Both the position numbers and the translations under genes were made by a program. This document shows positions 3,311 to 56,899 of a stretch of DNA of 64,000 nt, piece after piece (position 1 is the stretch's first letter; every line of letters starts with the position of its first letter). The stretch lies in assembly GCF_035084215.1 (NCBI RefSeq), contig NC_090341.1:51522001-51586000 (forward strand). Direction: 5' to 3'. Below the pieces are notes generated by a model. The model was not told where the DNA came from. It worked only from the letters and a program-made list of their open reading frames with translations, and did not search any database. Source of the stretch: Heptranchias perlo (Eukaryota).

Positions 3311-3952
3311 TCCCTATGTCCTATGTGTCTGAACCAGTTGATTCATCACCTGGTCCTTTGATAGAATGATTTCCTCTTGGATGCTGTGCTTCCCCTCGTG
3401 AATGCTGCTGTCTGAATGCCTTGGTCGTCTTCTCCTCGACTGGCTGACTGACGAGTGCTCTTTTCCTTATTACCGCTATGCTACAGTCACAACCCTCACA
3501 CTGTGCTCAAAAGGCATGAGATTAAATACCCTGGTGATGCATATTGCCGCCTGTAGTCTCCGCGTGGGTTTCCTGACAGGAGATCGATGGAACCCCCTAA
3601 GTAACGGCTAAAAATAGCCATATACGCCATTTTTCCAAAGTTCTGGTAGATGATTGGGGAGAACCCCGCAGAAATTCTGCTACAGGTTTACTTCTGTAGG
3701 TTCATTGTTGGACCCTCTGATCACTTGGGCTGTATCGACCAGCTCTGGCCCTTTCCCTTTGCCTCACAGGCCCAGACTACTGGGAGGAGAGATCTGAATA
3801 CCCAGCAGTACAGCTCCTTCCTGTCCCAGTACTGATGCTAGTGTCCCATGAAATGGAACCCCTCATTCCCACACCAGTCTTTCATTTTCTTTTTTTTAAT
3901 TCGTTCATGGGATGTGGGCGTCGCTGACGAGGCCAGCATTTATTGCCCATCC

Positions 3953-6877
3953 CTAATTGCCCTCGAGAAGGTGGTGGTGAGCCGCCTTCTTGAACCGCTG
4001 CAGTCCGTGTGGTGATGGTTCTCCCACAGTGCTGTTAGGAAGGGAGTTCCAGGATTTTGACCCAGCGACGATGAAGGAACGGCGATATATTTCCAAGTCG
4101 GGATGGTGTGTGACTTGGAGGGGAACGTGCAGGTGGTGTTGTTCCCATGCGCCTGCTGCTCTTGTCCTTCTAGGTGGTAGAGGTCGCGGGTTTGGGAGGT
4201 GCTGTCGAAGAAGCCTTGGCGAGTTGCTGCAGTGCATCCTGTGGATGGTGCACACTGCAGCCACAGTGCGCCGGTGGTGAAGGGAGTGAATGTTTAGGGT
4301 GGTGGATGGGGTGCCAATCAAGCGGGCTGCTTTATCTTGGATGGTGTCGAGCTTCTTGAGTGTTGTTGGAGCTGCACTCATCCAGGCAAGTGGAGAGTAT
4401 TCCATCACACTCCTGACTTGTGCCTTGTCGATGGTGGAAAGGCTTTGGGGAGTCAGGAGGTGAGTCACTCGCCGCAGAATACCCAGCCTCTGACCTGCTC
4501 TCGTAGCCACAGTATTTATATGGCTGGTCCAGTTCAGTTTCTGGTCAATGGTGACCCCCAGGATGTTGATGGTGGGGGATTCGGCGATGGTAATGCCGTT
4601 GAATGTCAAGGGGAGGTGGTTAGACTCTCTCTTGTTGGAGATGGTCATTGCCTGGCACTTATCTGGCGCGAATGTTACTTGCCACTTATGAGCCCAAGCC
4701 TGGATGTTGTCCAGGTCTTGCTGCATGCGGGCTTGGACTGCTTCATTATCTGAGGGGTTGCGAATGGAACTGAACACTGTGCAGTCATCAGCGAACATCC
4801 CCATTTCTGACCTTATGATGGAGGGAAGGTCATTGATGAAGCAGCTGAAGATGGTTGTGCCTAGGACACTGCCCTGAGGAACTCCTGCAGCAATGCCCTG
4901 GGGCTGAGATGATTGGCCTCCAACAACCACTACCATCTTCCTTTGTGCTAGGTATGACTCCAGCCACTGGAGAGTTTTCCCCCTGATTCCCATGGACTTC
5001 AATTTTACTAGGGCTCCTTGGTGCCACACTCGGTCAAATGCTGCCTTGATGTCAAGGGCAGTCACTCTCACCTCACCTCTGGAATTCAGCTCTTTTGTCC
5101 ATGTTTGGACCAAGGCTGTAATGAGGTCTGGAGCCGAGTGGTCCTGGCGGAACCCAAACTGAGCATCGGTGAGCAGGTTATTGGTGAGTAAGTGCCGCTT
5201 GATAGCACTGTCGACAACACCTTCCATCACTTTGCTGATGATTGAGAGTAGACTGATGGGGCGGTAATTGGCCGGATTGGATTTGTCCTGCTTTTTGTGG
5301 ACAGGACATACCTGGGCAATTTTCCACATTGTCGGGTAGATGCCAGTGTTGTAGCTGTACTGAAACAGCTTGGCTAGAGGCGCAGCTAGTTCTGGAGCAC
5401 AAGTCTTCAGCACTACAGCTGGGATGTTGTCGGGGCCCATAGCCTTTGCTGTATCCAGTGCACTCAGCCGTTTCTTGATATCACGTGGAGTGAATCGAAT
5501 TGGCCGAAGACTGGCTTCCGTGATGGTGGGGATATCGGGAGGAGGCTGAGATGGATCATCCACTCGGCACTTCTGGCTGAAGATGGTTGCAAACGCTTCA
5601 GCCTTGTCTTTTGCACTCACGTGCTGGACTCCGCCATCATTGAGAATGGGGATGTTTGCAGAGCCTCCTCCTCCCGTTAGTTGTTTAATTGTCCACCACC
5701 ATTCATGACTGGATGTGGCAGGACTGCAGAGCTTTGATCTGATCCGTTGGTTGTGGAATCGCTTAGCTCTGTCTATAGCATGTTGCTTCCGCTGTTTAGC
5801 ATGCATGTAGTCCTGAGTTGTAGCTTCACCAGGTTGGTACCTCATTTTTAGGTACGCCTGGTGCTGCTCCTGGCATGCTCTTCTACACTCCTCATTGAAC
5901 CAGGGTTGATCCCCTGGCTTGTTGGTAATGGTAGAGTGAGGAATATGCCGGGCCATGAGGTTACAGATTGTGGTGGAATACAATTCTGCTGCTGCTGATG
6001 GCCCACAGCGCCTCATGGATGCCCAGTTTTGTGCTGCTCGATCTGTTCTGAATCTATCCCATTTAGCACGGTGGTAGTGCCACACAACACGTTGGATGGT
6101 GTCCTCAGTGCGAAGACGGGACTTCATCTCCACAAGGACTGTGCAGTGGTCACTCCTACCAATACTGTCATGGACAGATGCATCTGCGACAGGTAGATTG
6201 GTGAGGACGAGGTCAAGTAAGTTTTTCCCTCGTGTTGGTTCGCTCACCACCTGCCGCAGGCCCAGTCTAGCAGCTATGTCCTTCAGGACTCGGCCAGCTC
6301 GGTCAGTAGTGGTGCTAACGAGCCACTCTTGGTGATGAACATTGAAGTCCCCCACCCAGAGTACATTTTGTGCCCTTGCTACCCTCAGTGCTTCCTCCAA
6401 GTGGTGCTCAACATGGAGGAGGACTGATTCATCAGCTGAGGGAGGGCGGTAGGTGGTAATCAGCAGGAGGTTTCCTTGCCCATGTTTGACCTGATGCCAT
6501 GAGATTTCATGGGGTCCAGAGTCAATGTTGAGGACTCCCAGGGCCACTCCCTCCTGACTGTATATCACTGTACCGCCACCTCTGGTGGGTCTGTCCTGCC
6601 GGTGGGACAGGACATACCCAGGGATGGTGATGGAAGAGTCTGGGACGTTGGCTGAAAGGTATGATTCTGTGAGTATGGCTATGTCAGGCTGTTGCTTGAC
6701 TAGTCTGTGGGACAGCTCTCCCAATTTTGGCACAAGTCCCCAGATGTTAGTAAGGAGGACCTTGCAGGGTCGACTGGACTTGGTGTTTTTTTGCCGTTGT
6801 CGTGTCCGGTGCCGAGTGGTCCGATGCCGGGTGGTCCGTCCGGTTTTATTCTTATTCTGACTTTTCGTAGCGAGATT
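3953..6877 (-). CDS. APE endonuclease-reverse transcriptase, open for 974 codons with no initiating AUG
   Basis: Frame opens after TAA at 6880-6878; Arg-rich leader, then LTNIWGL, LTESYL, YRPP, VGDFNVH, LDLV, SDH (APE), then NYRPISLL, QFGFR, LDIKAAFDRV, GVPQGSVLG, MFADD, LGVTID (RT). The ORF track start at 6733 is GTG; first ATG is at 6127. Confidence 0.9.
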   Translation of the reverse strand, partial: NLATKSQNKNKTGRTTRHRTTRHRTRQRQKNTKSSRPCKVLLTNIWGLVPKLGELSHRLVKQQPDIAILTESYLSANVPDSSITIPGYVLSHRQDRPTRGGGTVIYSQEGVALGVLNIDSGPHEISWHQVKHGQGNLLLITTYRPPSADESVLLHVEHHLEEALRVARAQNVLWVGDFNVHHQEWLVSTTTDRAGRVLKDIAARLGLRQVVSEPTRGKNLLDLVLTNLPVADASVHDSIGRSDHCTVLVEMKSRLRTEDTIQRVVWHYHRAKWDRFRTDRAAQNWASMRRCGPSAAAELYSTTICNLMARHIPHSTITNKPGDQPWFNEECRRACQEQHQAYLKMRYQPGEATTQDYMHAKQRKQHAIDRAKRFHNQRIRSKLCSPATSSHEWWWTIKQLTGGGGSANIPILNDGGVQHVSAKDKAEAFATIFSQKCRVDDPSQPPPDIPTITEASLRPIRFTPRDIKKRLSALDTAKAMGPDNIPAVVLKTCAPELAAPLAKLFQYSYNTGIYPTMWKIAQVCPVHKKQDKSNPANYRPISLLSIISKVMEGVVDSAIKRHLLTNNLLTDAQFGFRQDHSAPDLITALVQTWTKELNSRGEVRVTALDIKAAFDRVWHQGALVKLKSMGIRGKTLQWLESYLAQRKMVVVVGGQSSQPQGIAAGVPQGSVLGTTIFSCFINDLPSIIRSEMGMFADDCTVFSSIRNPSDNEAVQARMQQDLDNIQAWAHKWQVTFAPDKCQAMTISNKRESNHLPLTFNGITIAESPTINILGVTIDQKLNWTSHINTVATRAGQRLGILRRVTHLLTPQSLSTIDKAQVRSVMEYSPLAWMSAAPTTLKKLDTIQDKAARLIGTPSTTLNIHSLHHRRTVAAVCTIHRMHCSNSPRLLRQHLPNPRPLPPRRTRAAGAWEQHHLHVPLQVTHHPDLEIYRRSFIVAGSKSWNSLPNSTVGEPSPHGLQRFKKAAHHHLLEGN

Positions 6878-7060
6878 TTACAACTGAGTGGCTTGCTCGG
6901 CCATTTCAGAGGGCAATTAAGAATCAACCACATTGCTGTGGGTCTGGAGTCACGTATAGGCCAGACCGGGTAAGGATGGCAGGTTTCCTTCCCTGAAGGA
7001 CATTAGTGAACCAGATGGGTTTTTACGACAATCCGGTAGTTTCATGGCCACCATTACTGA
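6866..7060 (-). promoter_or_regulatory. Structured 5' UTR, candidate IGR-IRES-like element
   Basis: Stacked hairpins: AAGGA/UCCUU (6990-6972), GGUCUGG/CCAGACC (6967-6941), CCACA-GCAA-UGUGG (6941-6928), CUGA-aa-UGGC-[CGAGCAA]-GCCA-c-UCAG (6909-6884), then in-frame GCU at 6871-6869. Confidence 0.5.
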
Positions 7061-7134
7061 TACTAGTATTTTAATTCCAGATTTTTATTTAATTAATTGA
7101 ATTTAATTAATTAATTGAATTTTTTAATTCGCCA

Positions 7135-7227
7135 GCTGCCGTGGCAGGATTTGAACTCATGACTCTGGATTTTAGTCCAGGCCTCTGGATTACTAGTCCA
7201 GTAACATAACCACTATGCTACCGTACC
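7135..7227 (-). promoter_or_regulatory. tRNA(Thr-AGT)-like internal Pol III promoter forming the LINE 5' end
   Basis: A box TAGCATAGTGG (7220-7210), B box GTTCAAATCC (7156-7147), anticodon arm CTGGA-CTAGTAA-TCCAG followed by a degenerate duplicate TGGACTAAAATCCAG. Confidence 0.82.
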
Positions 7228-8685
7228 CGTTATTCCTGCTCCATTTATTCCTGTGCCAATTTGCATGTAGCTCTGGTAGTAATCTGGATATGACCACCCT
7301 CAAGGGCTTGCTTTTTAATTTAGCTCCTGATAATTCCCTCGGGCAGGACCACCTCCCTGTTCCTTCCTTTGTCATTGGTTCTGACATGGACTCGGACAAC
7401 TGATTCTTCACCCTCCCTTTCCAAGTTACTTTCCAGCTGCTCCTGATACCAGGTAGGAAACACACCCATCTGTATTCTCAATCACTACTGCAGAGTATAG
7501 AATCGCCTATAACTACCTTTCTATTCTGCTTCTCCACCCACCCCCTTGAACTGCCTCCTGCTCCATGGTGCGCATTGTGGCTATCTTCCCCGTAGTCTTT
7601 CGCCTTATCCTCACAGGTGGCAAGTTCATCGTACCTGTTGGACAGAACCAGATTCTGCAGTACCTTCTACCTGCTTCCAGTAGGTTCCCCTTACCCTGTT
7701 GACTCAGTCACACACTCCTCTTCCTGAGCCTTGACTTCTCCACATGGTGTGACTGGGTTCTGGAGTAAATTATCCAGACATTGCTCCCCCTCTCTGATGA
7801 GCTAGAGTGCGGGTTAGACACCAACACAACAACTCTGAGCCAGAGTGATTCAAGATAGAGACATTTCCTGCAGATGTGGTCATCCAGGAGAGTCTCACTG
7901 TCCACAAATTCCCACATACTGCAGTCCCAAAACACTGACTGTGCCGCTATTATCTACTCTGCAACTGCTATATAATCAATAAATAAATGTTTAATGCTTA
8001 CTGAATCGCCTTTAATGGTGAATTAGTTTTAGCTACCGCTCAGTTTATTAAATTTATCCTATTGGGTCTATTTACTAAAAGTAAACAGTTTGTTTTTACC
8101 GTTGCCTCTTAATTAATATTTTCAAGTTAAGTTGCCCCTTTAATTTTAACTATATAGTCAATTGAGGTTGGATAATAAATTAAACACTTAGCTTAAATTC
8201 TCGGGCTCTGCCACTCCTCCCTCTGCGTTGACCCCTTCGTTTGTTTGACCTCACCTGAAATCCTGGAAGAAACAGCTGAAAATGGCCATTTATGCCATTT
8301 CTCCAAGGTTTCTGCTAAAGTTATGGCAGGAGATTGGGCCGAACTCCCCACAAGTTTACTTCTGTTGGTTAATTGTTGGACCCTCTGGTCGCTTGGGCTG
8401 TTTCAGACAGCCCTTTGTCCCACTGGCCCAGACTACTGGGAGGACAGCAGGCCTCTGCCTTCTGTTGACTGTCCAAGTGCTGACTGACCTAGGGACGGAG
8501 AGATGGCCCTTTTATACCTTTTAAATTTCACTGACCAACTTTTTCTAGCTTCAAAGTTCAGTGGCCAGTTGAAAGGTTAACTGGGACATGCTAGTCCCTT
8601 CCAAAGGGCTAATCAGTTTTGATGGACGTGTGAGAGAAATTGCTGTCAATTTTCACATGTTCCGATTAGGCTGATGTTTCCTGAC

Positions 8686-9888: not shown

Positions 9889-10710
9889 AGAACATAAGGA
9901 ATAGGAGCAGGAGTAGGCCAATCGGCCCCTCGAGCCTGCTCCGCCATTCAATAAGATCATGGCTGATCTGATCCTAACCTCAAATCTAAATTCATGTCCA
10001 ATTTCCTGCCCGCTCCCCGTAACCCCTAATTCCCTTTACTTCTAGGAAACTGTCTATTTCTGTTTTAAATTTATTCAATGATGTAGCTTCCACAGCTTCC
10101 TGGGGCAGCAAATTCCACAGACCTACTACCCTCTGATGAAGAAGTTTCTCCTCATCTCAGTTTTGAAAGAGCAGCCCCTTATTCTAAGATTATGCTCCCT
10201 AGTTCGAGTTTCACCCATCCTTGGGAACATCCTCACCGCATCCACCCGATCAAGCCCCTTCACAATCTTATATGTTTCAATAAGATCGCTTCTCATTCCT
10301 CTGAACTCCGATGAGTAGAGTCCCAATCTACTCAACCTCTCCTCATATGTCCGCCCCATCATCCCCGGGATTAACCGAGTGAACCTTCTTTGTACTGCCT
10401 CGAGAGCAAGTATGTCTTTTCTGAAGTACGGAGACCAAAACTGTATGCAGTATTCCAGGTGCGGTCTCACCAATACCTTATATAACTGCAGCAATACCTC
10501 CCTGTTTTTATATTCTATCCCCCTAGCAATAAAAGCCAACATTCCATTGGCCTTCTTGATCACCTGCTGCACCTGCATACTAACTTTGATTTTCTTGCAC
10601 TAGGATCCCCAGATCCCGTTGCACTGCAGTACTTTCCAGTTTCTCGCCATTAAGATAATAACTTGCTCTCCGATTTTTCCTGCCAAAGTGCATAACCTCA
10701 CATTTTCCAT
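9889..10710 (-). mobile_element. 3' portion of a CR1 LINE (subfamily A)
   Basis: LYKVLVRPHLEYCIQFWSP..LEAVQRRFTRLIPG..MRRNFF; 3' hairpin and TTATGTTCT tail at 9889-9935. Confidence 0.9.
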
Positions 10711-13477
10711 TTTGTATCTCTCCCCTCTCACCTTAAATCTATGCCCCCTCGTTATAGACTCCCCTACCTTTGTGAAAAGATTTTGACTATCTACCTTATC
10801 TATGCCCCTCATTAATTTATAGACTTCTATAAGATCACCCCTAAACCTCCTACTCTCCAGGGAAAAAAGTCTCAGTCTATCCAACCTCTCCCGAAAAGTC
10901 AAACCATCAAGTCCCGGTAGCATCCCAGTAAATCTTTTCTGCACTCTTTCTAGTTTAATAATATCCTTTCTATAATAGGGTGACCAGAACTGTACACAGT
11001 ATTCCAAGTGTGGCCTTACTAATGTCTTGTACAACTTCAACAAGACATCCCAACTCCTGTATTCAATGTTCTGACCAATGAAACCAAGCATGCTGAATGC
11101 CTTCTTCACCACCCTATCCACCTGTGACTCCACTTTCAAGGAGCTATGAACCTGTACCCCTAGATCTCCTTGTTCTATAACTTTCCCCCATTAACGGAGT
11201 AGGTCCTGGCCCGATTCGATCTACCAAAATGCATCACCTCACGTTTATCTAAATTAAACTCCATCTGCCATTCATCGGCCCACTGGCCCAATTTATCAAG
11301 ATCCCGTTGCAATCCTAGATAACCTTCTTCACTGTCCACAATGCCACCAATCTTGGTGTCATCTGCAAACTTACTAACCATGCCTCCTAAATTCTCATCC
11401 AAATCATTAATATAAATAACAAATAACAGCGGACCCAGCACCGATCCCTGAGGCACACCGCAGGTCACAGGCCTCCAGTTTGAAAAACAACCCACTACAA
11501 CCACCCTCTGTCTTCTGTTGTCAATCCAATTTTGTATCCAATTGGCTACCTCACCTTCGATCCCGTGAGATTTAACCTTATGTAACAACCTACCATGCGG
11601 TACCTTGTCAAAGGCTTTGCTGAAGTCCATGTAGACCACGTCTACTGCACAGCCCTCATCTATCTTCTTGGTTACCCCTTCAAAAAACTCAATCAAATTC
11701 GTGAGACATGATTTTCCTCTCACAAAACCATGCTGACTGTTCCTAATCAGTCCCTGCCTCTCCAAATGCCTGTAGATCCTGTCCCTCAGAATACCCTCTA
11801 ACAACTTACCCACTACAGATGTCAGGCTCACCGGTCTGTAGTTCCCAGGCTTTTCCCTGCCGCCCTTCTTAAACAAAGGCACAACATTTGCTACCCTCCA
11901 ATCTTCAGGCACCTCACCTGTCGCTGTCGATGATTCAAGTATCTCTGCTAGGGGACCCGCAATTTCCTCCCTAACCTCCCATAACGTCCTGGGATACATT
12001 TCATCAGGTCCCGGAGATTTATCTACCTTGATGCGCGTTAAGACTTCCAGCACCTCCCTCTCTGTAATATGTACACTCCTCAAGACATCACTATTTATTT
12101 CCCCAAGTTCCCTAACATCCATGCCTTTCTCAACCGTAAATACCGATGTGAAATATTCATTTAGGATCGCACCCATCTCTTGTGGTTCCGCACATAGATG
12201 ACCTTGTTGATCCTTCAGAGGCCCTACTCTCTCCCTAGTTACTCTTTTGCCCTTTATGTATTTGTAGAAGCTCTTTGGATTCTCCTTTGCCTTATCTGCC
12301 AAAGCAATCTCATGTCCCCTTTTTGCCCTCCTGATTTCTCTCTTAACTCTACTCCGGCAATCTCTATACTCTTCAAGGGATCCACTTGATCCCAGCTGTC
12401 TATGCATGTCATATGCCTCCTTCTTCTTTCTGACTAGGGCCTCAATCTCCCGAGTCATACAAGGTTCCCTACTTCTACCAGCCTTGCCCTTCACTTTATA
12501 AGGAATGTGCTTACCCTGAACCCTGGTTAACACACTTTTGAAAGCCTCCCACTTACCAGACGTCCCTTTGCCTGCCAACAGACTCTCCCAATCAACTTCT
12601 GAAAGTTCCTGTCTAATCCCATCAAAATTGGCCTTTCCCCAATTTAGAATTTTAACTTTTGGGCCAGACCTATCATTCTCCATAGCTATCTTAAAACTAA
12701 TGGAATTATGATCACTGGTCCCAAAGTGATCCCTCACTAACACTTCTGTCACCTGCCCTTCCTTATTTCCCAAGAGGAGGTCAAGTTTTGCCCCCTCTCT
12801 AGTCGGGCCATCCACATACTGAATGAAAAATTCCTCCTGAATACACTCAAAAAATTTCTCCCCATCCAAGCCCCTAATGCTATGGCTGTCCGAGTCAATG
12901 TTGGGAAAGTTAAAGTCTCCTACTATTACCACTCTATTTTTCTTGCAGCTGTCTGTAATCTCCTTACATATTTGCTCCTCAATTTCCCGTTGACTATTTG
13001 GAGGTCTGTAGTACAATCCTATCAGAAGTGATCTCTCCCTTCTTATTTTTCAGTTCTACCCATATAGACTCAGTGGGCGAACCCTCGGATATATCCCCTC
13101 TCACTACTGCCGTGATGTTCTCCCTAATCAAGAACGCAACTCCCCTTCCTCTCTTACCTCCTGCTCTATCTTTCCTATAGCATCTGTACCCTGGAACATT
13201 GAGCTGCCAGTCCTGCCCCTCCCTTAGCCATGTTTCAGTAATAGCTATAACATCCCAGTCGCATGTACCCATCCATGCCCTGAGTTCATCTGCCTTGCCC
13301 ATCAGACTTCTTGCATTGAAATAAATGCAGTTTAATCTAGACTTCCCTTGGTCTTTGCCCTGCTTTCTCAGACCATCTGTCCGGTCATGTTTTGTACACT
13401 CTCCCTTACTGCCTTTTGTTTCTGTCACCACTTTACTTCCCACTGACTTCCTGCATCGGTTCCCATCCCCCTGCCCA

Positions 13478-14425
13478 TTAGTTTAAACCCTCCCCAACAG
13501 CACTAGCAAACACTCCCCCTAGGACATTGGTTCCAGTCCTGCCCAGATGCAGACCGTCCAATTTGTACTGGTCCCACCTCCCCCAGAACCGTTTCCAATG
13601 GCCCAGGAATTTGAATCCCTCCCTCTTGCACCATCTCTCAAGCCATGTATTCATCCTAGCTATCCTGTCATTCCTACTCTGACTAGCCCGTGGCACTGGT
13701 AGCAATCCTGAGATTACTACCTTTGAGGTCCTACTTTTTAGTTTAACTCCTAACTCCCTAAATTCAGCTTGTAGGACCTCATCCCGTTTTTTACCTATAT
13801 CGTTGGTACCTAGATGTACCACGACAACTGGCTGTTCACCCTCCCCCTCCAGAATGTCCTGCAGCCGCTCTGAGACATCCCTGACCCTTGCACCAGGGAG
13901 GCAACATACCATCCTGGAGTCTCGGTTGCATCCGCAGAAACGCCTGTCTATTCCCCTTACAATCGAGTCCCCTATCACTATAGCTCTGCCACTCTTTTTC
14001 CTGCCCTCCTGTGCAGCAGAGCCAGCCACGGTGCCATGAACCTGGCCGCTGCCACCTTCCCCTGGTGAGCCATCTCCCCCAACAGTATCCAAAACGGTAT
14101 ACCTGTTTTGGAGGGAGATGACCGCAGGGGACCCCTGCACTGCCTTCCTACTCTTCCTCTGTCTGTTGGTCACCCATTCACTATCTCCCTCAGTAATTTT
14201 TATCTGTGGTGTGACCAACTCACTGAACTTGCTATCCACGACTTTCTCAGCATCGCGGATGCTCCAAAGTGAGTCCATCCGCAGCTCCAGAGCCGTCAAG
14301 CGGTCAAACAGTAGCTGCAGCTGGACACACTTCCCGCAGGTGAAGGAACCAGGGACACAGGAAGGATCCCTGAATTCCCACATCCCACAAGAGGAACATG
14401 ACACGGCTCTGGGATCTCCTGCCAT
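13478..14425 (-). CDS. Intact CR1 ORF1p (C4 zinc finger, leucine zipper, SGNH esterase)
   Basis: 315 aa; CSSC..CGKC, LQLLFDRLTALEL, VIGDSIVRG, GARV, LGTND, DGLHL. Confidence 0.9.
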   Translation of the reverse strand: MAGDPRAVSCSSCGMWEFRDPSCVPGSFTCGKCVQLQLLFDRLTALELRMDSLWSIRDAEKVVDSKFSELVTPQIKITEGDSEWVTNRQRKSRKAVQGSPAVISLQNRYTVLDTVGGDGSPGEGGSGQVHGTVAGSAAQEGRKKSGRAIVIGDSIVRGIDRRFCGCNRDSRMVCCLPGARVRDVSERLQDILEGEGEQPVVVVHLGTNDIGKKRDEVLQAEFRELGVKLKSRTSKVVISGLLPVPRASQSRNDRIARMNTWLERWCKREGFKFLGHWKRFWGRWDQYKLDGLHLGRTGTNVLGGVFASAVGEGLN

Positions 14426-14636
14426 GACTTAACCCTTAAGTTAGCTTAACACAACTACAATGTCAAGAGAAAAAAAAGGAAGGAAGTCACTTACCTGTTG
14501 GCTGTGACTTCGTGCCTCCAGCAGCTGCAGTAGCTCGATCCTCCTCCTAAACAATCAGCTACTCACCAATCAGCTCCTTCCCTTCTGCTGACGTCACTTT
14601 GGGGGTTTTTTTTCTCTCTCCCTAACCCTCGCGCTC

Positions 14637-15643
14637 GGCCGCTCCTCTGCTCCGCCTCCTCAGCTGATCCTGTGCTCCTGACTCCCGCCTTTTTATGGGC
14701 CGCTCCTCTGCTCCGCCTACTCAGCTCATCCTGTGCTCCTGACTCCCGCCTTTTTATGGGCCGCTCCTCTGCTCCGCCGCCTCAGCTGATCCTGTGCTCC
14801 TGACTCCCGCCTTTTTATGGGCCGCTCCTCTGCTCCGCCGCCTCAGCTCATCCTGTGCTCCTGACTCCCGCCTTTTTATGGGCCGCTCCTCTGCTCCGCC
14901 TCCTCAGCTCATCCTGTGCTCCTGACTCCCGCCTTTTTATGGGCCGCTCCTCTGCTCCCTCGCCTCAGCTGATCCTGTGCTCCTGACTCCCGCCTTTTTA
15001 TGGGCCGCTCCTCTGCTCCGCCGCCTCAGCTGATCCTGTGCTCCTGACTCCCGCCTTTTTATGGGTCGCTCCTCTGCTCCCTCGCCTCAGCTGATCCTGT
15101 GCTCCTGACTCCCGCCTTTTTATGGGCCGCTCCTCTGCTCCGCCTCCTCAGCTGATCCTGTGCTCCTGACTCCCCCCTTTTTATGGGCCGCTCCTCTGCT
15201 CCGCCTCCTCAGCTGATCCTGTGCTCCTGACTCCCGCCTTTTTATGGGCCGCTCCTCTGCTCCGCCGCCTCAGCTGATCCTGTGCTCCTGACTCCCGCCT
15301 TTTTATGGGCCGCTCCTCTGCTCCGCCTCCTCAGCTGATCCTGTGCTCCTGACTCCCGCCTTTTTATGGGCCGCTCCTCTGCTCCGCCTCCTCAGCTGAT
15401 CCTGTGCTCCTGACTCCTGCCTTTTTATGGGCCGTTCCTCTGCTCCGCCTCCTCAGCTGATCCTGTGCTCCTGACTCCCGCCTTTTTATGGGCCGCTCCT
15501 CTGCTCCGCCGCCTCAGCTGATCCTGTGCTCCTGACTCCCCCCTTTTTATGGGCCGCTCCACTGCTCCGCCGCCTCAGCTGATCCTGTGCTCCTGACTCC
15601 CGCCTTTTTATGGGCCGCTCCTCTGCTCCGCCGCCTCAGCTGA
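14637..15643 (-). repeat. 61-bp tandem array (~16.5 copies) forming the CR1 5' end
   Basis: Sense unit CATAAAAAGGCGGGAGTCAGGAGCACAGGATCAGCTGAGGAGGCGGAGCAGAGGAGCGGCC; register shifts 1 nt per 60-nt line. Confidence 0.97.
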
Positions 15644-16586
15644 CAGGCAATGCAGCGTGTGGCTGATCTCCAAGGCGTCCAGCTCTGCGTGCGTTAGAAC
15701 CACCTCGTGTGGCGGGCCCCCTCCGGTGCGTGCCCTTTCCCGGGCGTTCTTGCATCTCTTCTCCTGTCAAGGGAAAACACAGATGCGTGATTGAGTGATG
15801 ATTGCATTGTGAGACGCTTCAAGCATTGGTGTGGGTGGGTTGAGCGTGTGGGAGATGGATGGGAGGATGCGTGTGCCACATGCCCATCCCATTGTATGGG
15901 GATTGGGGTGTGTGGTAGTGTTCGAATGGGGACAGGGACGGTGGGTACGTGCAGGCACGGTGAGGATGATAGTTGAGTGGCTGTGAGGATTGATGCGGGA
16001 GCGCTGTGGTGGCAGTGCAGAAGGGGTTGTGAGGTGTTTGAGGTGATGTGGAAGACGGAGTGTGGGAGAATGCGTTAGTGTACTCACTTTGCCAGACCTA
16101 GTGAGATCATTGAATCTCTTGCGACACTGGATCCATGTTCTTGTGGTGTTGCCCCTGCTGCTAACCTCCGCGGCCACCTCCGCCCATGCCTTCCTGGTGG
16201 CGGAGGCAGGGCACTTCCTTCCATCGCTGGGGAACAACGTCTCCCTCCTCCTCCTTTCCCCACCCAGCAGCAGCTGGAGTGAGTGGTCAGAAAATCGTGG
16301 GGCAGCCTTACCCCTGGGGTGCTCCATGGTGTGCTACTTCTTGTTTGCAGCAGGAGGAGCATTGGTGGACTGCCCCTTTAAATAGAGCTCCACCATCACT
16401 CAGACGTCATTGCGCATGCGCAGGCCGCCGGCGCGCAGCTGAGCAGCGGAAAACCCGTAACCACAGCTTAATGACTTCAATTATCCTGTGATCGCGCGGG
16501 GGACGCATTCATTTCACCGGGCGCGTTACCCACGCGCCCGATAGCCCCCCCCGCCGGGAACCCGCAGGCCTGCTAACATCGGGCCC
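15642..16586 (-). mobile_element. Harbinger fragment carrying spliced Myb/SANT (NAIF1/MSANTD4-like) gene 5' part
   Basis: Exon 1 16327-16088 (APRFSD..AWAEVAAEV..QCRKRFNDL), GTGAGT donor, acceptor TTGACAG, exon 2 from 15763 (EKRCKNARERARTGGGP); TIR GGGCCCGATGTTAGCA at 16586-16571. Confidence 0.85.
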
Positions 16587-24365: not shown

Positions 24366-24810
24366 CTGCAGATAGTATCCAAATAACTCTTCCCCCACTC
24401 TGATGCATCGCAGTGTCCGCAGCTCAGACTCCAGCCCAACAACTATGAGCCGAAGATCCTCGAGCTGCAGACACTTACTGCAGGTGTGGTTGCTCGGGAT
24501 CTCGCAAACTCCCCCATGCTGCAGTTACGACACACCACCTGCCCTGCCATCTTTATCTAACCTTGTTTTATATAATTAGTTTTTAAAAAGTTTTTATTCA
24601 ATGGATTATTTATAGTTTTATTAATCTAGTTAATAATCTAGTTTGTTATTAATTTAATAAAGTAGTAGCAGTTTCATTCTCCCAGCTCTTAATTTAACCC
24701 ACTGCCCTAACTTAGAGGGAAAGAATGCAGTAATACTTACCAGCCAATCACCTACCTGCCGTCCCATGACGTCACTCCTTGATTTTTTTTCCAGTCCCAC
24801 GGAATGTATC

Positions 24811-25545
24811 GCCCCCGCCCCGGTCCCCGACCGGACCCTCCCCCGTCTCCCCCGCCCCGGTCCCCGACCGGACCCTCCCCCGTCTCCCCCGCCCGGCCCC
24901 TCCCCCGTCTCCCCCGCCCCGGTCCCCGACCGGACCCTCCCCCGTCTCCCCCGCCCCGGTCCCCGACCGGACCCTCCCCCGTCTCCTCCGCCCCGGTCCC
25001 CGACCGGACCCTCCCCCGTCTCCCCCGCCCCGGTCCCCGACCGGAGTCTCCCCCGCCCCGGTCCCCGACCGGACCCTCCCCCGTCTCCCCCGCCCCGGTC
25101 CCCGACCGGACCCTCCCCCGTCTCCCCCGTCCCGGTCCCCGACCGGGCCTTCCCCCGTCTCCCCCGCCCCGGTCCCCGACCGGACACTCCCCCGTCTCCC
25201 CCGCCCCGGTCCCCGACCGGGCCCTCCCCCGTCTCCCCCGCCCCGGTCCCTGACCGGACCCTCCCCCGTCTCCCCCGCCCCGGTCCCTGACCGGACCCTC
25301 CCCCGTCTCCCCCGCCCCGGTCCCCGACCGGCCCCAACCCCGTCTCCCCCGCCCCAGTCCCCGACCGGACCCTCCCCCGCCCCGGTCCCTGACCGGCCCC
25401 AACCCCGTCTCCCCCGCCCCGGTCCCCGACCAGCCCCAACCCCGCCCCTCCACCGCCCCGGTCCCCGACCGGGCCCGCCCCCGCCGCGGTCCCCGACCGG
25501 ACCCTCCCCCACCCCGGTCCCCGACCGGGCCCGCCCCCGCCTCCG
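24811..25545 (-). repeat. 37-bp G-rich tandem array (~20 units, some truncated) in CR1 5' UTR
   Basis: Sense unit GAGACGGGGGAGGGTCCGGTCGGGGACCGGGGCGGGG; the 37-aa periodicity of the overlapping ORFs confirms the period. Confidence 0.95.
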
Positions 25546-35550: not shown

Positions 35551-36409
35551 CGGGGTGCCATTGATTACACGCATATAGCCGTGCTCCACATCTCAACTTG
35601 GCCATCTTTATGAACAGAAAGGGGTTCCACTCCCTCATTGTGCAGCTGGTGTGTGACCACACGCAGCGCATCATGACCTGTGCCAAGTTGGAGATGGACT
35701 CCTCCATGCCCCTTGACATTGTGCGCAGGCTTTCTGGAGACTTTCCTGTGCACCAAGCATTTGATGGTGTACACCCATCAGCCATCTTCTGTAGCCTGGC
35801 CCATCAATGTCCTCATCTGACTCCTCTGCAGCAAAACCATTGTGCGACCTCGCCCCCTCTGGCAAGCTGGCACCTGTGATATCCGTTCCCCCCCGTCCCG
35901 GCTCCTGCGCACTTGTGCCCGATATCTCGCCACGCGCTGATCCCTCCTCTAACCAAGCCTCTAAAGGACGTGCAGTGTCAGTATCTGAACTGGTGGATGC
36001 GAGTGTCAGATCAAGTGACGGTGTGACTTCATTGTCAGTATCCTCCTCCTCTGACGGTGCCGGCTCCAGTTCTTGGGTATCTGCAATGACAAAGGGAGAT
36101 GGGCATCAGAAAAGATTGTGGGATGAGGGAGAAGTGGGAAACGAAAAGGAGGATTAGGTATGCAGAGACCCCCTTTGTCGGGACCTCCAGCACTGCCAGT
36201 AGCCATGGCCACAGCAACGGCCTGCCCAATGATGCGCAGCACCGTCTCCTCCAGGGGGGGGTGACATGTCCTCCCTCGAGTCTTTCGGTCTGCCTGCTGT
36301 TATGCGCCACCTTCTCCTGTAAGACACAAGGAAATGAGTCAGTGAGTATCCTGCAATATGTTTGGTTGATCTGCCTATCATGGTCGAATAGCTGCCAGTG
36401 TGTGTGACT

Positions 36410-38165
36410 TTTTTTTTATTCGTTCATGGGATGTGGGCATCGTTGGCGAGACCAGCATTTATTGCCCGTCCCTAATTGACCTTGAGAAGGTGGTGGTGAG
36501 CCACCTTCTTGAACCGCTGCAGTCTGTGTGGTGAAGGTTCTCCTACAGTGCTGTTAGGAAGGGAGTTCCAGGATTTTGACCCAGCGACAATGAAGGAACA
36601 GCGATATATTTCCAAATCGGGATAGTCTGTGACTTGGAGGGGAACGTGCAGGTGGTGTTGTTCCCTTGTACCTGCTGCTCTTGTCCTTCTAGGTGGTAGA
36701 GGTCGCGGGTTTGGGAGGTGCTGTCGAAGAAGCCTTGGCGAGTTGCTGCAGTGCATCCTGTGGATGGTACACACTGCAGCCACTGTGCACCGGTGGTGAA
36801 GGCAGTGAATGTTTAGGGTGATGGATGGGGTGCCAATCAAGCGGGCTCCTTTGTCCTGGATGGTGTCGAGCTTCTTGAGTGTTGTTGCAGCTGCACTCAT
36901 TCAGGCAAGTGGAGAGTATTCCATCACACTCCTGACTTGTGCCTTGTAGATTGTGGAAAGGCTTTGGGGAGTCAGTAGGTGAGTCACTTGCCGCAGAATA
37001 CCCAGCCTCTGGCCTGCTCGTGTGGCCACAGTATTTATATGGCTCGTCCAGTTAAGTTTCTGGTCAATGGTGACCCCCAGGATGTTGATGGTGGGGGATT
37101 CGGCGATGGTAATACCGTTGAATGTCAAGGGGTGGTGGTTAGACTCTCTCGTTGGAGATGGTCATTGCCTGGCACTTTTCTGGCGCGAATGTTACTTGCC
37201 ACTTATGAGCCCAAGCCTGGATGTTGTCCAGGTCTTGCTGCATGCGGGCTCGGACTGCTTCATTATCTGAGGGGTTGCGAATGCAACTGAACACTGTGCA
37301 ATCATCAGCGAACATCCCCATTTCTGACCTTATGATGGAGGGAAGGTAATTGATAAAGCAGCTGAAGATTTTTTGGCCTAGGACACTGCCTTGAGGAACT
37401 CCTGCAGCAATGTCCTGGGGCTGAGATGATTGGCCACCAGCAACCATTACCATCTTCCTTTGTGCTAGGTATGACTCCAGCCACTGGAGAGTTTTCCCCG
37501 TGATTCCCATTGACTTCAATTTTACTAGGGCTCCTTGGTGCTACACTCGGTCAAATGCTGCCTTGATGTCAAGGGCAGTCACTCTCACCTCACCTCTGGA
37601 ATTCAGCTCTTTTGTCCATGTTTGGACCAAGGCTGTAATGAGGTCTGGAGCCGAGTGGTCCTGGCGGAACCCAAACTGAGCATCGGTGAGCAGGTTATTG
37701 GTGAGTAAGTGCCGCTTGATAGCACTGTCGACGACACCTTCCATCACTTTGCTGATGATCGAGAGTAGACTGATGGGGCGGTAATTGGCCAGATTTTGTC
37801 CTGCTTTTTGTGGACAGCACATACCTGGGCAATTTTCCACATTGTCGGGTAGATGCCAGTGTTGAAGCTGTACTGGAACAGTTTGGCTAGAGGCGCAGCT
37901 AGTTCTGGAGCACAGGTCTTCGGCCCTACATCCGGGATGTTGTCGGGGCCCATAGCCTTTGCTGTTTCCAGTGCACTCAGCCGTTTCTTGACATCACGTG
38001 GAGTGAATCGAATTGGCTGAAGACTGGCTTCTGTGATGGTGGGGATATCGGGAGGAGGCTGAGATGGATCATCTACTCGCCACTTCTGGCTGAAGATGGT
38101 TGCAAACGCTTCAGCCTTGTCTTTTGCACTCACGTGCTGGACTCCGCCATCGTTGAGGATGTTTG
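36410..38165 (-). mobile_element. 5'-truncated copy of the tRNA-headed LINE family
   Basis: Colinear with 3890-5658, poly(A) tail, several stops/frameshifts. Confidence 0.95.
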
Positions 38166-47200: not shown

Positions 47201-49286
47201 TGGCACCACCCCCATATCTAAGGATGTTTGGAAGATTATGGCCAGTACCTCCGCAATTTCTATCCTTACTTCCCTCAGTAACCTAGGATACATCCCATAC
47301 GGACCTGGTGACTTACCTACTTTAAGTACAGCCAGACTTTCTAGTACCTCCTCTTATCTATTTTTAGCCCATCCAATATCTCAACCACCTCTTTTACTGT
47401 GACTTTGGCAGCATCTTCTTCCTTGATGAAGACAGATGCAAAGTACTCATTTAGTACCTCAGCCATGCCCTCTGCCTCCATGAGTAGATCTCCTTTATGG
47501 TCCCTAATCAGCCCCACCCCTCCTCTTACTACCCATTTACTATTTATATGCCTATAGAAGTCTTTTGGATTCCCTTTTATGTTAGTTGCCAGTCTATTCT
47601 CATACTCTCCCTGCCCCTCTTATTTTCTTTTTCACTTCCCCTCTGAACTTCCTTTATTCAGCCTAGTTTTCACTTGTGTTATCAACCTAACATCTTCATG
47701 CGTCCCCTTTTTCTGCTTCATCTGACTCTTTCTCTTTTGTCATACAGGGAGCTCTGGCTTTGGTTGCCCTACCTTTCCCCCTTGTGGGAATGTAGCTAGA
47801 CTGTACCCGAACCATCTCCTCTTTAAAGGCCACCCATTGTTCGATTACAGTTTTGCCTGCCAATCTTTGATTCCAATTTACCCGGGCCAGATCCGTTCTC
47901 AACCCACTGAAATTGGCCCTCTTCCAATCAAGTATTTTTACGCTAGATTGCTCCTTGTCCTTTTCCATAACTAATCTAAACCTTATGATACTACTAAATG
48001 TTCCCCCACTGACACTTGCTCCACTTGACCCACCTCATTCCCCAGAACCAGATCCAGCAATGCCTCCTTCCTTGTTGGGCCAGAAACGTACTGATCAAGA
48101 AAGTTCTCCTGAGCACACTTCAGAAATTCTTCCCCCTCTCTGCCCTTTACACTGTTACTATCCCAGTCTATATTAGGATAATTGAAGTCCCCCATTATCA
48201 ACTACTGTATGGCTCTCTGTAATTTCCCTGCAAATTTGCTCTTCTATATCCTTCCCACTAGTTGATGACCTATAGAATACACCCGGTAGTGTAATGGCAC
48301 CTCTATTGTTTAACTCAAACCAAATAGATTCTGTCCTTGACCCCTCCAGGTCATCCTCTCTCTCCAACACGGCAATATTCTCTTTAATCAATACAGCGAC
48401 CTCCCCCACCCCCCACCTCCTTTCCTTCCCTATCTTTCCTGAACACTTTGTATCCCGGAATATTTAGTAGCCAATCCTGTCCTTTTTTGAGCCAGGTCTC
48501 AGTTATCGCCACAACATCATATTCCCATGTGGCTATTTGTGCCTGCAGCTCACCAACCTTATTTACCACGCTTCGTGCGTTTACACACATGTACTGTAAA
48601 CATATCTTAGATCTTGTATTCTGTCTTAATCTGATCCCACTTAATACCGTACTATTTCTTACTCTAGTGCTGTCTGTCTCTCCCAATCCTTTGTTCACCT
48701 TGTTCCTCCTTTCCAATGCTACATCCTGGTGCCCATCCCCCGCCAAATCAGTTTAAACCCTTCCCCACAGTGTACTAAAAGAAACCTTTTAAATGCAATT
48801 AAATGATTCCTTGTGGTTCAGGCTCAAGCCCATTGTCCAAATGCAAGTTTATTACTCAGACACCAATAGTATAATAACTATTACAGTTATACAATAAACG
48901 TGTCCAACCTGGTTTCCTGCAGACCCAAGGTGATCAGGCTTGGCTTCCGTAGGTTGGACTTCAGACCGTCCCGTCAGCTTAACTCCAAAAAGCCTGCTAC
49001 TTGTTCTTATATCTTCCCCTTACATGTCCAAAAACTTTCCCTTTAATGTGAGTCATCTCACATCATACCCAGGATGTATAATGAAGTGAGGTTCCTCCAG
49101 ACCTCGACATAATGGTCATGTTGATAGATAAATTGCTAATCAGTTTAACCTGGTAATACAAAGGGACAGGAGATGCCCTGGATAGATGATGTGATGATTG
49201 GCTGGCCTCCATTGTTCCAGCTAACTTCTGATATTAATGCATGTCCTTATCTGATAATCACATCGAGATGTGATTAACTTTGATGG

Positions 49287-49503
49287 ATGTAAGGAATCTT
49301 ACAACACCAGGTTATAGTCCAACTGTTTTATTTGAAAATCACAAGCTTTCGGAGGCTTTCTCCTTCGTCACACTCGCTCACCTGACGAAGGAGAAAGCCT
49401 CCGAAAGCTTGTGATTTTCAAATAAAACAGTTGGACTATAACCTGGTGTTGTAAGATTCCTTACATTTGTCAACCCCAGTCCATCACCGGCATCTCCACA
49501 TCA
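49287..49503. mobile_element. Penelope-type terminal-repeat-only insertion forming an 84-bp perfect inverted repeat
   Basis: Arms 49287-49370 and 49383-49466; 12-bp TSD TAACTTTGATGG at 49275-49286 and 49504-49515; arm identical to 51107-51189. Confidence 0.9.
49379..49413 (+). ncRNA. Minimal type I hammerhead ribozyme (Penelope-associated)
   Basis: CAC-CUGACGA-A-GGAG(AAAGC)CUCC-GAAA-GC-UU-GUG: conserved core, stem II, palindromic AAGCUU stem III, CAC/GUG stem I. Confidence 0.8.
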
Positions 49504-50225
49504 TAACTTTGATGGGACACAAAGCAAAATCTAATGCACAGCACTAGTGAACCTCCCTGCAAGGACATTGGTCCCAGCTCAGTTGAGGTGCAACCCGTAC
49601 AGCCTGTACAGGTCCCATCTCCCCCAGAACTGGTCCCAATGCCCCAGGAATCTAAAACCCTTCTCCAGCCATGCATTCATCTGCTCTATTCTCCTATTTC
49701 TATACTCGCTAGCGCGTGGCACCGGGAGTAATCTGGAGATTACTACCTTTGAGGTGCTGCTTATTATTCACATTCCTAACTCCTTAAAATCTGCCTGCAG
49801 GACCTCATCCCTCTTTCTACCTATGTCGCTGGTACCGATATGGACCATGACCTCTGGCTATTCACCCTCCCCCTCCAGAATATTCTGCAGCTGCTCAGTG
49901 ATATCCTTGATGCTGGCACCAGAGAGGCAACATACTCTCCTGGAATCACATCTGCAGCCGCAGAAACGCCTGTCTGATCCCCTATCACTATTGCTCTCCT
50001 GATCTTTCTTCTCCCCCGCCCTCCCCTTCCCCCAGTGCAACTGAGCCACCTATGGTGCTGTGGACATGGCTGTGGCTGCACTCCTCAGAGGAACCCTCTC
50101 CCTCATCAGTATTCAGATCGGAATACTGATTGGAGAGCGAGATGCCCTTACGGGACTTCTGCATTACCTGCCTTGTCCTCCTTGTCTGCCTGGCAGTCAC
50201 CCAGTCCCTCTCTGCCTGCACTCTC

Positions 50226-50518
50226 TTCAGCTGCAGGGTGACCACCTCGTGAAACGTGCTATCCATCTTCAGCTGCAGGGAGACCACCTCGTGAAACGTG
50301 CTATCCATCTTCAGCTGCAGGGTGACCACCTCGTGAAACGTGCTATCCATCTTCAGCTGCAGGGTGACCACCTCGTGAAACGTGCTATCCATCTTCAGCT
50401 GCAGGGAGACCACCTCGTGAAACGTGCTATCCATCTTCAGCTGCAGGGAGACCGCCTCGTGAAACGTGCTATCCATCTTCAGCTGCAGGGTGACCGCCTC
50501 GTGAAACGTGATATCCAC
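50226..50518 (-). repeat. 42-bp tandem repeat (~7 copies) in frame within CR1 ORF1
   Basis: Unit encodes MDSTFHEVVTLQLK (ORF 49988-50518). Confidence 0.95.
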
Positions 50519-51105
50519 GTAGCTCTCGGCCTAGCGAATGCACTGCAGTGACACCAGCTGCTGCTCAAGCTCCAAAAACCACTGGTTCAGCTCCTCCAGC
50601 TGACGACACTTCCTGCACCTCTGGTTGTCCAGGACACGGGAAGCGTCCTGGAGTTCCCACATGGCACAAGATGCGCATTCGACAGGACTGAGGTGCCCTG
50701 CCATGCCTCTAGTTATTAGATTACTAACTCAAATTAACAGAAATAAACTAAAGACTTAAAAAGAACACTAACCAGCTACTCATCAATCAGTTCCTTCCCT
50801 TGTGCTGACGTCAGTTTAGGGTGCTTTTACCTCGCTCCCTCACTCTTTATCCTCTCCGGCACTTTGCTGCTCCGCCTCCAAACTCCTTCATGTCCGCTCT
50901 CCTTACCTTCGGGCAATCAAGCCACAATCATAAATTGCAAGCATAGCGCACAGATTGATCTCCGAAATCTACAAACCACAGTAAAAGAAAGCACAGATTT
51001 AGGATCCAGCAAGATCAGTAGAAAAGCCCCCAGGCTCTATCTCCTTGGCCCATATTATACACCCAGCAGCATATCAGTTCCTCTTCTGTGCCTTAATTTT
51101 AACCA

Positions 51106-51856
51106 ATGTAAGGAATCTTACAACACCAGGTTATAGTCCAACTGTTTTATTTGAAAATCACAAGCTTTCGGAGGCTTTCTCCTTCGTCAGGTGAGCGAGT
51201 GTGGGATTCCATGGAAGGTTACCGCATTTATAGTCAAAGAACAATACCTGGTGATTACAGATAATCTTTCCAACTGCCAGTTGTCAAGGCAATCAAAGTG
51301 TTCAGACAGAGTGATGTTACCTACAGGACCACCGAATACACAAACGGCCAGAACACAAGACAGACAGAGAGAGAGAAACATCTGAAAGGAAGAGAAAGAC
51401 AGAGAATGACCCGTTGTGTTAAAAACAGATAACTTTTTTTCGCTGGTGGAGTTACGTGTAGCGTGACATGAATCCAAGATCCCGGTTGAGGCCGTCCTCA
51501 TGGGTGCGGAACTTGGCTATCGATTTCTGTTCGACGATTTTGCGTTGTCGTGTGTCTCGAAGGCCGCCTTGGAGAACGCTTACCCGAAGGTCGGTGGCTG
51601 AATGTCCTTGACTGCTGAAGTGTTCCCCGACTGGGAGGGAACCCTCCTGTCTGGCGATTGTTGCGCGGTGTCCGTTCATCCGTTTTCGCAGCGTCTGCAT
51701 GGTCTCGCCAATGTACCATGCTCCGGGGCATCCTTTCCTGCAACGTATGAGGTAGACAACGTTGGCCGAGTCACAGGAGTATGAACCATGTACCTGGTGG
51801 GTGGTGTCCTCTCGTGTGATGGTGGTGTCTGTGTCGATGATCTGGCATGTCTTGCA
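51106..51856 (-). mobile_element. Penelope-like element 3' fragment with GIY-YIG endonuclease
   Basis: SCDSANVVYLIRC..WYIGETMQTLRKRMNGHR..PVGEHFS..RKIVEQKSIAKF..GLNRD; terminal repeat with hammerhead. Confidence 0.9.
51159..51193 (-). ncRNA. Minimal hammerhead ribozyme, second copy
   Basis: Reverse complement identical to 49379-49413. Confidence 0.8.
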
Positions 51857-56846: not shown

Positions 56847-56899
56847 TGTCCCTTTCCTCCCTTCCACCCCGTGGGAGCCAAAATGCTGAAAACCCTCTT

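Follow-up and report, generated by a model that had tools for sequence, protein, structure and literature searches.

We asked how translation begins on a retrotransposon whose reading frame has no AUG ahead of its first enzymatic domain. The element is a long interspersed nuclear element (LINE) in a 64,000-nt stretch of the genome of the shark Heptranchias perlo (contig NC_090341.1, positions 51,522,001 to 51,586,000), which we call the window; all features of the element lie on the minus strand and positions are window coordinates. It starts with a tRNA-like head, and just ahead of its open reading frame (ORF) lies a hairpin whose loop triplet, AGC, is complementary to an in-frame GCU. A sequence-only reading of the locus had taken this for a start site resembling pseudoknot I (PKI) of the intergenic region (IGR) internal ribosome entry sites (IRESs) of dicistroviruses, which mimics a codon-anticodon pair and sets the frame without AUG or initiator tRNA. 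Of the two features, the tRNA-headed, AUG-less LINE is the firmer novelty, firmer than the PKI-like mimic.

A coding LINE without an AUG before its endonuclease

The copy at this locus is full length, 3.34 kb (3343 nt), and contains a single ORF:

3953..6877, minus strand: single open frame of 974 aa, stop to stop (ORF listing and translation)
6749..6868, minus strand: basic N-terminal leader under frame constraint (distance classes in multiples of 3)
6146..6748, minus strand: APE-type endonuclease (PF03372 on aa 44-244, model positions 4-225 of 225)
4547..5293, minus strand: reverse transcriptase (RT) domain (PF00078 on aa 529-777, E 1.7e-37)
3886..3952, minus strand: short 3' tail and A-run, common to the non-coding derivatives (sequence and copy comparison)

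As a codon of the open frame, AUG first appears at 6127 (codon 251), downstream of the whole endonuclease. Across 228 codons of the endonuclease region, the subfamilies of the element differ at 16 first, 14 second and 41 third codon positions; the region is translated and under purifying selection. As the first AUG follows an endonuclease under purifying selection, an unusual start is required, and the need for an AUG-independent start that the sequence-only reading implied is well supported.

Where, then, does translation start? We compared 122 distinct copies that hold both the hairpin and the start of the endonuclease; 119 of them belong to subfamilies A (73), A2 (12), C (24) and B (10). 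The four subfamilies have four different spacers between hairpin and GCU, each 12 nt long, and GCT was found at the same offset in 64/73 copies of A, 10/12 of A2, 19/24 of C and 4/10 of B. The distance from GCU to the endonuclease, with classes spanning 105-126 nt, was divisible by three in 98 of the 119 copies (A 68/73, A2 8/12, C 17/24, B 5/10), and subfamily C, with classes of 27 or 24 nt, shows that the frame constraint includes the first nine codons. In subfamilies A and B, moreover, a UAA precedes GCU by two codons. The frame constraint near GCU together with the upstream UAA places the start at GCU or a few codons away. Translation thus very probably starts, without an AUG, within a few codons of 6871. 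Editing of ACG to AUG is ruled out by lineages with ACA and AAA in place of ACG, and a slippery A-run (~6793-6785) proved to be confined to the window copy.

The element is a young, single-ORF LINE that is abundant in the shark genome. Its loop-to-spacer pattern occurs at at least 12,068 genomic sites (a control pattern at 2), the 40 genomic copies scored are 96-100% identical, and about 44 of the 150 best genomic matches in a protein search retain an open frame of at least 970 aa (hand count). Three 5'-truncated copies lie elsewhere in the window (36408-38161, 55365-56848 and 53828-54208, minus strand; 93-95% identical). An APE endonuclease and an RT in one ORF, a 3' A tail and dispersed 5'-truncated copies together mark it as an APE-type non-LTR (long terminal repeat) retrotransposon; no target-site duplication was seen at the LINE copy. 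The high-identity named matches (78-95%) were shark gene models holding pieces of the LINE ORF. Models P0002, P0004, P0005, P0013 and P0014 (aldo-keto reductase-like, SVEP1-like, storkhead-box-like and others) contain such pieces, through either annotation carry-over or exonisation. The nearest full-length relatives are 37-41% identical at the protein level. Likeness by eye to the hagfish element CR1-7_EBu, whose C-terminal motifs resemble those of the LINE, and known motifs suggest that it belongs to the CR1 group. A comparison of the endonuclease sequence with the PDB gave no relevant match.

Searches for distant relatives gave no nucleotide pattern match in IMG/VR (0 and 0) and 0 confirmed of 11 protein-profile matches there; all 36 of 36 matches of a pattern search in metagenomes and 6 of 6 in GTDB were due to chance. 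One raw-read run (X22) yielded just 16 reads, and three other runs consisted of contigs. The full-text literature, in a search that left Repbase, Dfam and subscription papers outside, contained neither a tRNA-headed autonomous LINE nor a PKI-like start in a retrotransposon, and the PMC11481361 supplement gave no hit. The family may already be named in Repbase or Dfam.

A head resembling tRNA and depletion of oligo-T

We next consider which polymerase makes the RNA. The 5' end of the element has the following features:

7137..7228, minus strand: tRNA-like head, the first 92 nt and 5' end of the element
7220-7210 and 7158-7147, minus strand: box A and box B, within the head
7201-7185, minus strand: head anticodon arm with loop CUAGUAA, within the head
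7180-7165, minus strand: tandem second copy of that arm, situated between the two boxes (subfamilies A, A2 and C; not in B)

The two boxes are what we take to be the A and B boxes of RNA polymerase III (Pol III), assigned from its consensus. With the Rfam tRNA model the head reached 22.3 bits (E 0.046) and so fell short of the gathering score, 29, and ARAGORN called no tRNA gene in it. The 5' end is sharp: the flanks of 30 copies diverge just before 7228, and 13-14 of the first 14 bases were matched in 20 of 26 scored copies. Contigs from three runs of other organisms also show loose ends at 7228, though contigs are uninformative on start, strand and level. Box A and box B inside the element, together with a fixed 5' end, make the arrangement of a type 2 Pol III promoter. 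In subfamily B, the oldest, the head has plain tRNA length and lacks the duplicated arm that the younger subfamilies carry. By eye, the B-type head resembles the hagfish SINE2-8_EBu head as printed in Fig. S3 of PMC7245038.

Oligo-T is the terminator of Pol III. The 3343-nt sense strand has no run of four T (T4) and only six TTT runs. Base shuffles gave an expectation of 21.3 TTT runs (as low as 6 in 0/2000), dinucleotide shuffles 14.9 (as low in 0/300) and permutation of synonymous codons in the ORF 13.1 (as low in 4/2000). Runs of A, C and G are close to expectation. A second LINE nearby served as a control:

10126-14428, minus strand: broken two-ORF CR1-type LINE (GDSL esterase ORF1, PF13472; endonuclease-RT ORF2)

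This control has 14 T4 runs and 49 T3 runs versus 43 expected, and is therefore not depleted. The absence of T4 taken by itself is modest, and tells somewhat against our interpretation, as 139 of 2000 synonymous permutations were likewise free of T4. Nevertheless, no internal oligo-T terminator interrupts the LINE. Because oligo-T terminates Pol III, the depletion of T-runs leads us to infer, with good confidence, that Pol III transcribes the entire element and that its RNA is therefore uncapped.

The hairpin, the in-frame GCU and the possible modes of start

Can the hairpin set the reading frame? The region between the body of the 5' untranslated region (UTR) and the leader reads as follows:

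6884..6909, minus strand: anticodon-arm-like hairpin, predicted
6909-6906/6887-6884, minus strand: outer stem, 4 bp
6903-6900/6892-6889, minus strand: inner stem, 4 bp (5 bp where 6904 is G)
6915-6913/6881-6879, minus strand: possible 3-bp extension of the hairpin, predicted
6899-6893, minus strand: 7-nt loop, CGAGCAA in the window copy
6895..6897, minus strand: anticodon-like triplet AGC (in 101/106 coding copies not selected on the loop)
6872..6883, minus strand: 12-nt spacer (first five bases fixed, next six varying by subfamily, length constant)
6869..6871, minus strand: GCU, third codon of the 974-aa frame and candidate mimic of a P-site codon
6878..6904, minus strand: upstream frame from an in-frame AUG at 6904, in the stem, closed by UAA at 6880 (plus UAG in the loop of most copies)

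The coordinates that the sequence-only reading gave for hairpin, loop, linker and GCU all match the sequence, and GCU is, as it stated, the third codon of the open frame, followed by ACG and the peptide TKSQNKNKTGR. The hairpin is the minimum free energy structure of a 56-nt slice, with ordinary stability (z 0.14; 96/200 shuffles fold equally well), and its pair probability in the fold of the whole 5' UTR is 0.87-0.94. It was present in 28 of 30 copies found by protein alone; one of the other two is deleted within the hairpin and one truncated there. In runs X14, X17 and X18 the consensus of the loose ends likewise has a 12-nt C-type spacer, with GCUACAAA after it. An apparent compensatory change in the outer stem of one copy (L097) was rejected as chance, with a single exact genome match and both single changes common.

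The family's usual loop is CUAGCAA, with T at position 33 in 67/106 coding copies, and it matches the canonical pattern of tRNA anticodon loops, Y32-U33-A37-A38. The window copy has G33, one of many changes at this T, a base that in CTA context is hypermutable all along the element. In 58 young copies (7233-5001), T in CTA context was the most variable class of base (mean 0.078 over 34 sites, overall 0.0115), exceeding CpG contexts; the change was mostly to G or C and strongest in CTAG. A to C changes at the mirrored position were also seen. The hypermutability may be a signature at the DNA level or an error of the RT.

How often would such a hairpin arise by chance? When the 60 nt upstream were shuffled, a hairpin with a 7-nt loop matching one of the first six in-frame codons appeared in 183/5000 shuffles, and in 12/5000 when the loop had also to obey a Y32/U33/R37 rule, which the window copy misses because of its G33; the criteria of both tests were set post hoc. 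In the heads of subfamily B, CUAGCAA is the commonest anticodon loop (6/26 scored, most others one change off), and head arm and hairpin arm differ by swapped stem pairs. The head arm is also the best match to the hairpin arm, although the 11/17 of the window copy is not significant (803/5000). From the loop in B heads and the swapped pairs, it is plausible that a tRNA-Ala(AGC)-type arm was duplicated and gave rise to the hairpin.

The mechanism that these features suggest is as follows. The hairpin AGC would pair with GCU, 12 nt downstream, as a tethered mimic of anticodon and codon; the pair would occupy the ribosomal P site; and the next codon (ACG, ACA or AAA, depending on the subfamily) would be decoded first, without initiator tRNA, on a ribosome recruited by the upstream body through some fold. 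An alternative register, in which loop GAG pairs with the CUC ahead of GCU and GCU is decoded first as in cricket paralysis virus (CrPV), was rejected: it is available only to the G33 copies of A, the triplet being AUC in B and ACC/ACU in C. That the hairpin acts as a PKI-like P-site mimic is, in our estimate, about evenly poised, and it is the best single mechanism. The hairpin and GCU of the sequence-only reading resemble PKI in size, spacing and frame in each of the four subfamilies, and their setting, a tRNA-headed element poor in T-runs, is stronger than that reading supposed; the absence of loop/codon covariation, the helix of only 3 bp and the lack of any recognised pseudoknot II (PKII) or L1.1 loop speak against it.

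Among the 106 coding copies, whose choice did not depend on the loop, 84 have AGC together with GCT. In none of the 106 have both triplets changed and remained complementary, so that the covariation which the sequence-only reading had named as a check was not seen. This test is weak and the invariance of GCU carries little weight, because 91 of 110 fourfold sites are likewise invariant between the same subfamilies. Several further observations weigh against a P-site mimic. Two-sided change in the loop-codon helix was confined to single rows; the helix has 3 bp (4 with U33), as A37/A38 face UC or CC before GCU and cannot pair; one B sub-lineage breaks a pair of the outer stem; and the 5' UTR gave no Rfam match and no recognisable PKII or L1.1-like loop.

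Does the upstream body contain a fold? We analysed an alignment of 79 copies, made up of the window copy, 20 out of 63 A copies and every one of the 58 non-A copies (some rows were chosen by hairpin patterns):

6916..7136, minus strand: conserved 5' UTR body, not assigned to a named short interspersed nuclear element (SINE) domain (alignment of 79 copies)
7015-7000/6957-6943, minus strand: candidate helix in the body (pair counts)
6990-6972, minus strand: stem-loop with a CUGCC loop (pair counts)
6941-6928, minus strand: stem-loop (pair counts)
6909..6919, minus strand: perfect 11-nt complement of 3964-3954, at the 3' end of the element (5/1000 shuffled tails reach 11 nt)

RNAalifold kept eight pairs in these 79 decayed copies, and the inner stem of the hairpin was one of the two surviving helices; a column-pair scan of the alignment was too permissive for use. 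A named structure of 39 pairs outscored 500 shuffles, having been built from the same sequences. Of its 62 two-sided cells, 34 come from pair 7015:6943 (U-A in 39 and A-U in 34 of the 79 copies) and 10 from pair 6984:6976, which closes the CUGCC loop (A-U in 53, G-C in 10). The changes at these two pairs are suggestive; the two-sided changes in the 39-pair structure are few events among related copies. Upstream helices with two-sided change, 3 against a column-shuffle mean of 1.41, were not above the null (41/200), and the best of them had a probability of 0.01 in the whole-UTR ensemble; both results weigh against the proposed mechanism. All subfamilies could form a pairing of 4-7 bp between 6997-6991 and 6913-6905; compensatory changes are lacking there, and it would be partly at the expense of the outer stem. 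The 11-nt complement is incompletely kept in C-type copies (by eye), and 3964-3954 is the region of the ORF stop. The body gave no Rfam match. A Deu-domain identity, considered at first for the body, was dropped, as the printed Deu alignment (PMC7245038 supplement), compared by eye, differs except for one short motif; 7035-7018 and 6929-6921 bear a short by-eye likeness to one Deu and one UCON3 motif printed there, which may be chance.

Could translation start in another way? We consider it unlikely that a cap-independent, factor-dependent route places Met-tRNAi at the near-cognate codon of each lineage (ACG, UUG, AUC/AUU or AAG). The RNA would still be made by Pol III, the hairpin would be a relic, the copy of a tRNA anticodon arm, whose role is structural if it has one, and AGC would match GCU by coincidence. 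Every subfamily majority has such a codon within four codons of GCU, and no good one is common to all: A has ACG, A2 and C have UUG, and B has AUU or AUC. The ACG of A has a purine at -3. The head arm as best match to the hairpin, the second arm duplication in the head, the 183/5000 of the looser chance test and the absent covariation fit this route as well. However, the start codon would have had to shift three times while GCU and the spacer length stayed fixed, and the arm match of the window copy is the non-significant one given above. In addition, UAA ahead of GCU and AAA behind it occur in 8/73 A-type copies, a lineage that therefore has neither UUG nor ACG and is left with only AAG/AGG. 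An AAG six codons past GCU (67/68 A and 8/8 A2 copies) is a possible poor near-cognate start and to that extent a point against the P-site mimic; AAG is a very poor initiator codon. The eight AAA copies share no break in their majority ORF, which is identical to the A2 one across ~510 codons. The lineage may nonetheless have been mobilised in trans, which would also weaken the case for the mimic; mobilisation in trans needs no hairpin, because some 10 of 30 loci that were identified from head and body alone have it missing between body and 3' tail (rough script classes), in contrast to the 28 of 30 copies found by protein that carry it.

Quite improbable, in our view, is translation of an upstream short frame (AUG 6904 or 7054/7045/7003) followed by AUG-less reinitiation or stop readthrough. 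AUG-less reinitiation after an upstream frame is known from human L1 ORF2. Five of the seven upstream AUGs are in frame 0, and the short frame from AUG 6904 closes two codons ahead of the ORF. On the other side, 6904 is G, not A, in 28/79 aligned copies (a set partly selected for G) and the codon is GUG in subfamily B, most A copies carry two stops (UAG and UAA) ahead of the frame, and an uncapped RNA would still require a first initiation event. Finally, a vestigial head with the ORF expressed from RNA polymerase II (Pol II) read-through or spliced host transcripts, which would supply an AUG through an acceptor near CAG 6886-6884, is very improbable: the shark gene models with ORF pieces would fit it, but TTT is strongly depleted across the element, full-length copies start sharply at the head, no spliced class was present among 30 copies found by protein, and no GT-AG joint among the 15 joints listed of 305.

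Returning to the P-site mimic, we hold only tentatively, and with less confidence than its parts, the combined view of a LINE with a Pol III messenger, which would have acquired a tRNA head as promoter and lost oligo-T throughout its 3.3 kb, and in which a duplicated tRNA-Ala arm would provide a start free of cap, AUG, initiator tRNA and factors, independently of dicistroviruses.

Derivatives, wider meaning and comparison with known systems

The genome also contains SINE-like internal deletions of the LINE, which consist of head, body (with or without hairpin and GCU) and LINE 3' tail (e.g. L064, L065, L068, L076, L083 and L134). Kojima 2018 (PMC5786205) proposed that SINE bodies originate from the 5' parts of LINEs, and the layout of these deletions fits that idea. 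B-type non-coding derivatives (L260, L263, L267, L269, L273 and L275) join 6919-6909 and 3964-3954 directly, as if the RT had jumped the stem of the 11-nt complement. In another copy, L049, near 1385-1430 of that copy, a piece of the 3' tail is inverted and fused to the 5' UTR just upstream of the hairpin.

Elsewhere in the window, a 36-nt tandem array at 63085-64000 (plus strand) holds an open frame of at least 305 aa with weak Pfam matches per repeat (Rio2_N, E 1e-6, and Phage_rep_O). Arrays of 61, 37 and 42 nt lie at 14515-15790, 24776-25510 and 50182-50559. A near-perfect inverted repeat of 91 nt with a 12-nt spacer occupies 49280-49473, and 51099-51203 belongs to a 105-nt inverted pair 1.6 kb apart.

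What would such an element mean? Autonomous LINEs are regarded as Pol II transcripts and SINEs as Pol III transcripts (PMC5786205); a coding LINE with a tRNA promoter and element-wide depletion of oligo-T blurs this divide and, if made by Pol III, would be a natural protein-coding Pol III transcript of more than 3 kb. Its deletion products are directly SINE-like, which bears on the origin of SINE bodies. PMC13273307 calls the origin of factor-free IRESs obscure, without sequence similarity to cellular mRNA elements, and the review PMC3894237 raises IGR-type IRESs in non-LTR elements as a mere possibility. The locus reduces the question of a factor-free start to a 47-nt domain and two mutable triplets. 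If the mimic is real, it would be a factor-free initiation element in a vertebrate chromosome and a model for PKI-type domains arising from tRNA; if active in vertebrate ribosomes, it would also lend itself to compact constructs that express genes cap-independently from Pol III promoters.

We compared the LINE with the type 6 (IGR) IRESs of CrPV (6a), Halastavi arva virus (HalV, 6c) and nedicistrovirus (NediV, 6d). Like their PKI, the LINE would have an anticodon-like stem-loop (8-12 bp), a linker and an in-frame triplet within ~45 nt; the complementary triplet is in frame with the ORF and directly precedes an AUG-less ORF. A spacer that varies in sequence and is constant in length recalls the variable loop of PKI, and the CUGCC-loop hairpin is one base away from the CAGCC loop of SL2.2 as given in PMC13273307. 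The predicted LINE stem of 8-9 bp (up to 12 with the extension) compares with a P3.1 of 9-11 bp with bulges, and the spacer of 12 nt, or 10 nt + 2 if aligned on a 5-bp helix, with a linker of 7-9 nt. PKI as described in PMC13235965 has an 11-bp stem and 9-nt loop in CrPV and 9 bp and 7 nt in NediV, and its P3.2 loop-codon helix has 5 bp in both, whereas that of the LINE has 3 bp and a seven-nt loop of tRNA type. GCU would be the paired codon in the LINE, while in CrPV it comes after the paired triplet (a primer in PMC7293025). A core of PKI and PKII, with L1.1 loops, is common to type 6 IRESs (PMC13273307); no PKII, L1.1 or PKIII was shown in the LINE, whose host is a chromosomal retrotransposon. 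The RF00458 model had no match at E<=10 in the 701 and 221 nt, a test that covers none of the newer subtypes 6c-6h, and a genome-wide search with it found nothing, as did its control, and is uninformative. Membership in the dicistrovirus type is thus unsupported: since the 5-bp helix and the model match both failed, we do not file the element as a type 6 IRES.

R2 and L1Tc make uncapped 5' ends with a ribozyme and translate their RT without AUG. The LINE is similar to these and to L1 ORF2 in its presumed uncapped RNA or AUG-independent RT translation, and differs from this group in its tRNA-like promoter at the 5' end, its one ORF and the absence of an Rfam ribozyme match. With LINEs of the CR1 group (the hagfish CR1-7_EBu by eye, the invertebrate P0025-P0027) it has in common the APE endonuclease, the RT and a short basic leader. 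The predicted proteins of these relatives, known from proteins alone and with starts set by gene callers, begin with Met before the endonuclease, while the shark LINE has no AUG there and a tRNA head. In layout it resembles tRNA-derived SINEs (Deu, Meta, UCON3, V and CORE) and bipartite non-autonomous LINEs, which have the same order of tRNA head, body and LINE 3' tail. In the printed material compared by eye, the body shares only short motifs with Deu, Meta and UCON3, and the head differs from that of SacSINE1. The difference from those SINEs is that here head and body reside on the coding element itself.

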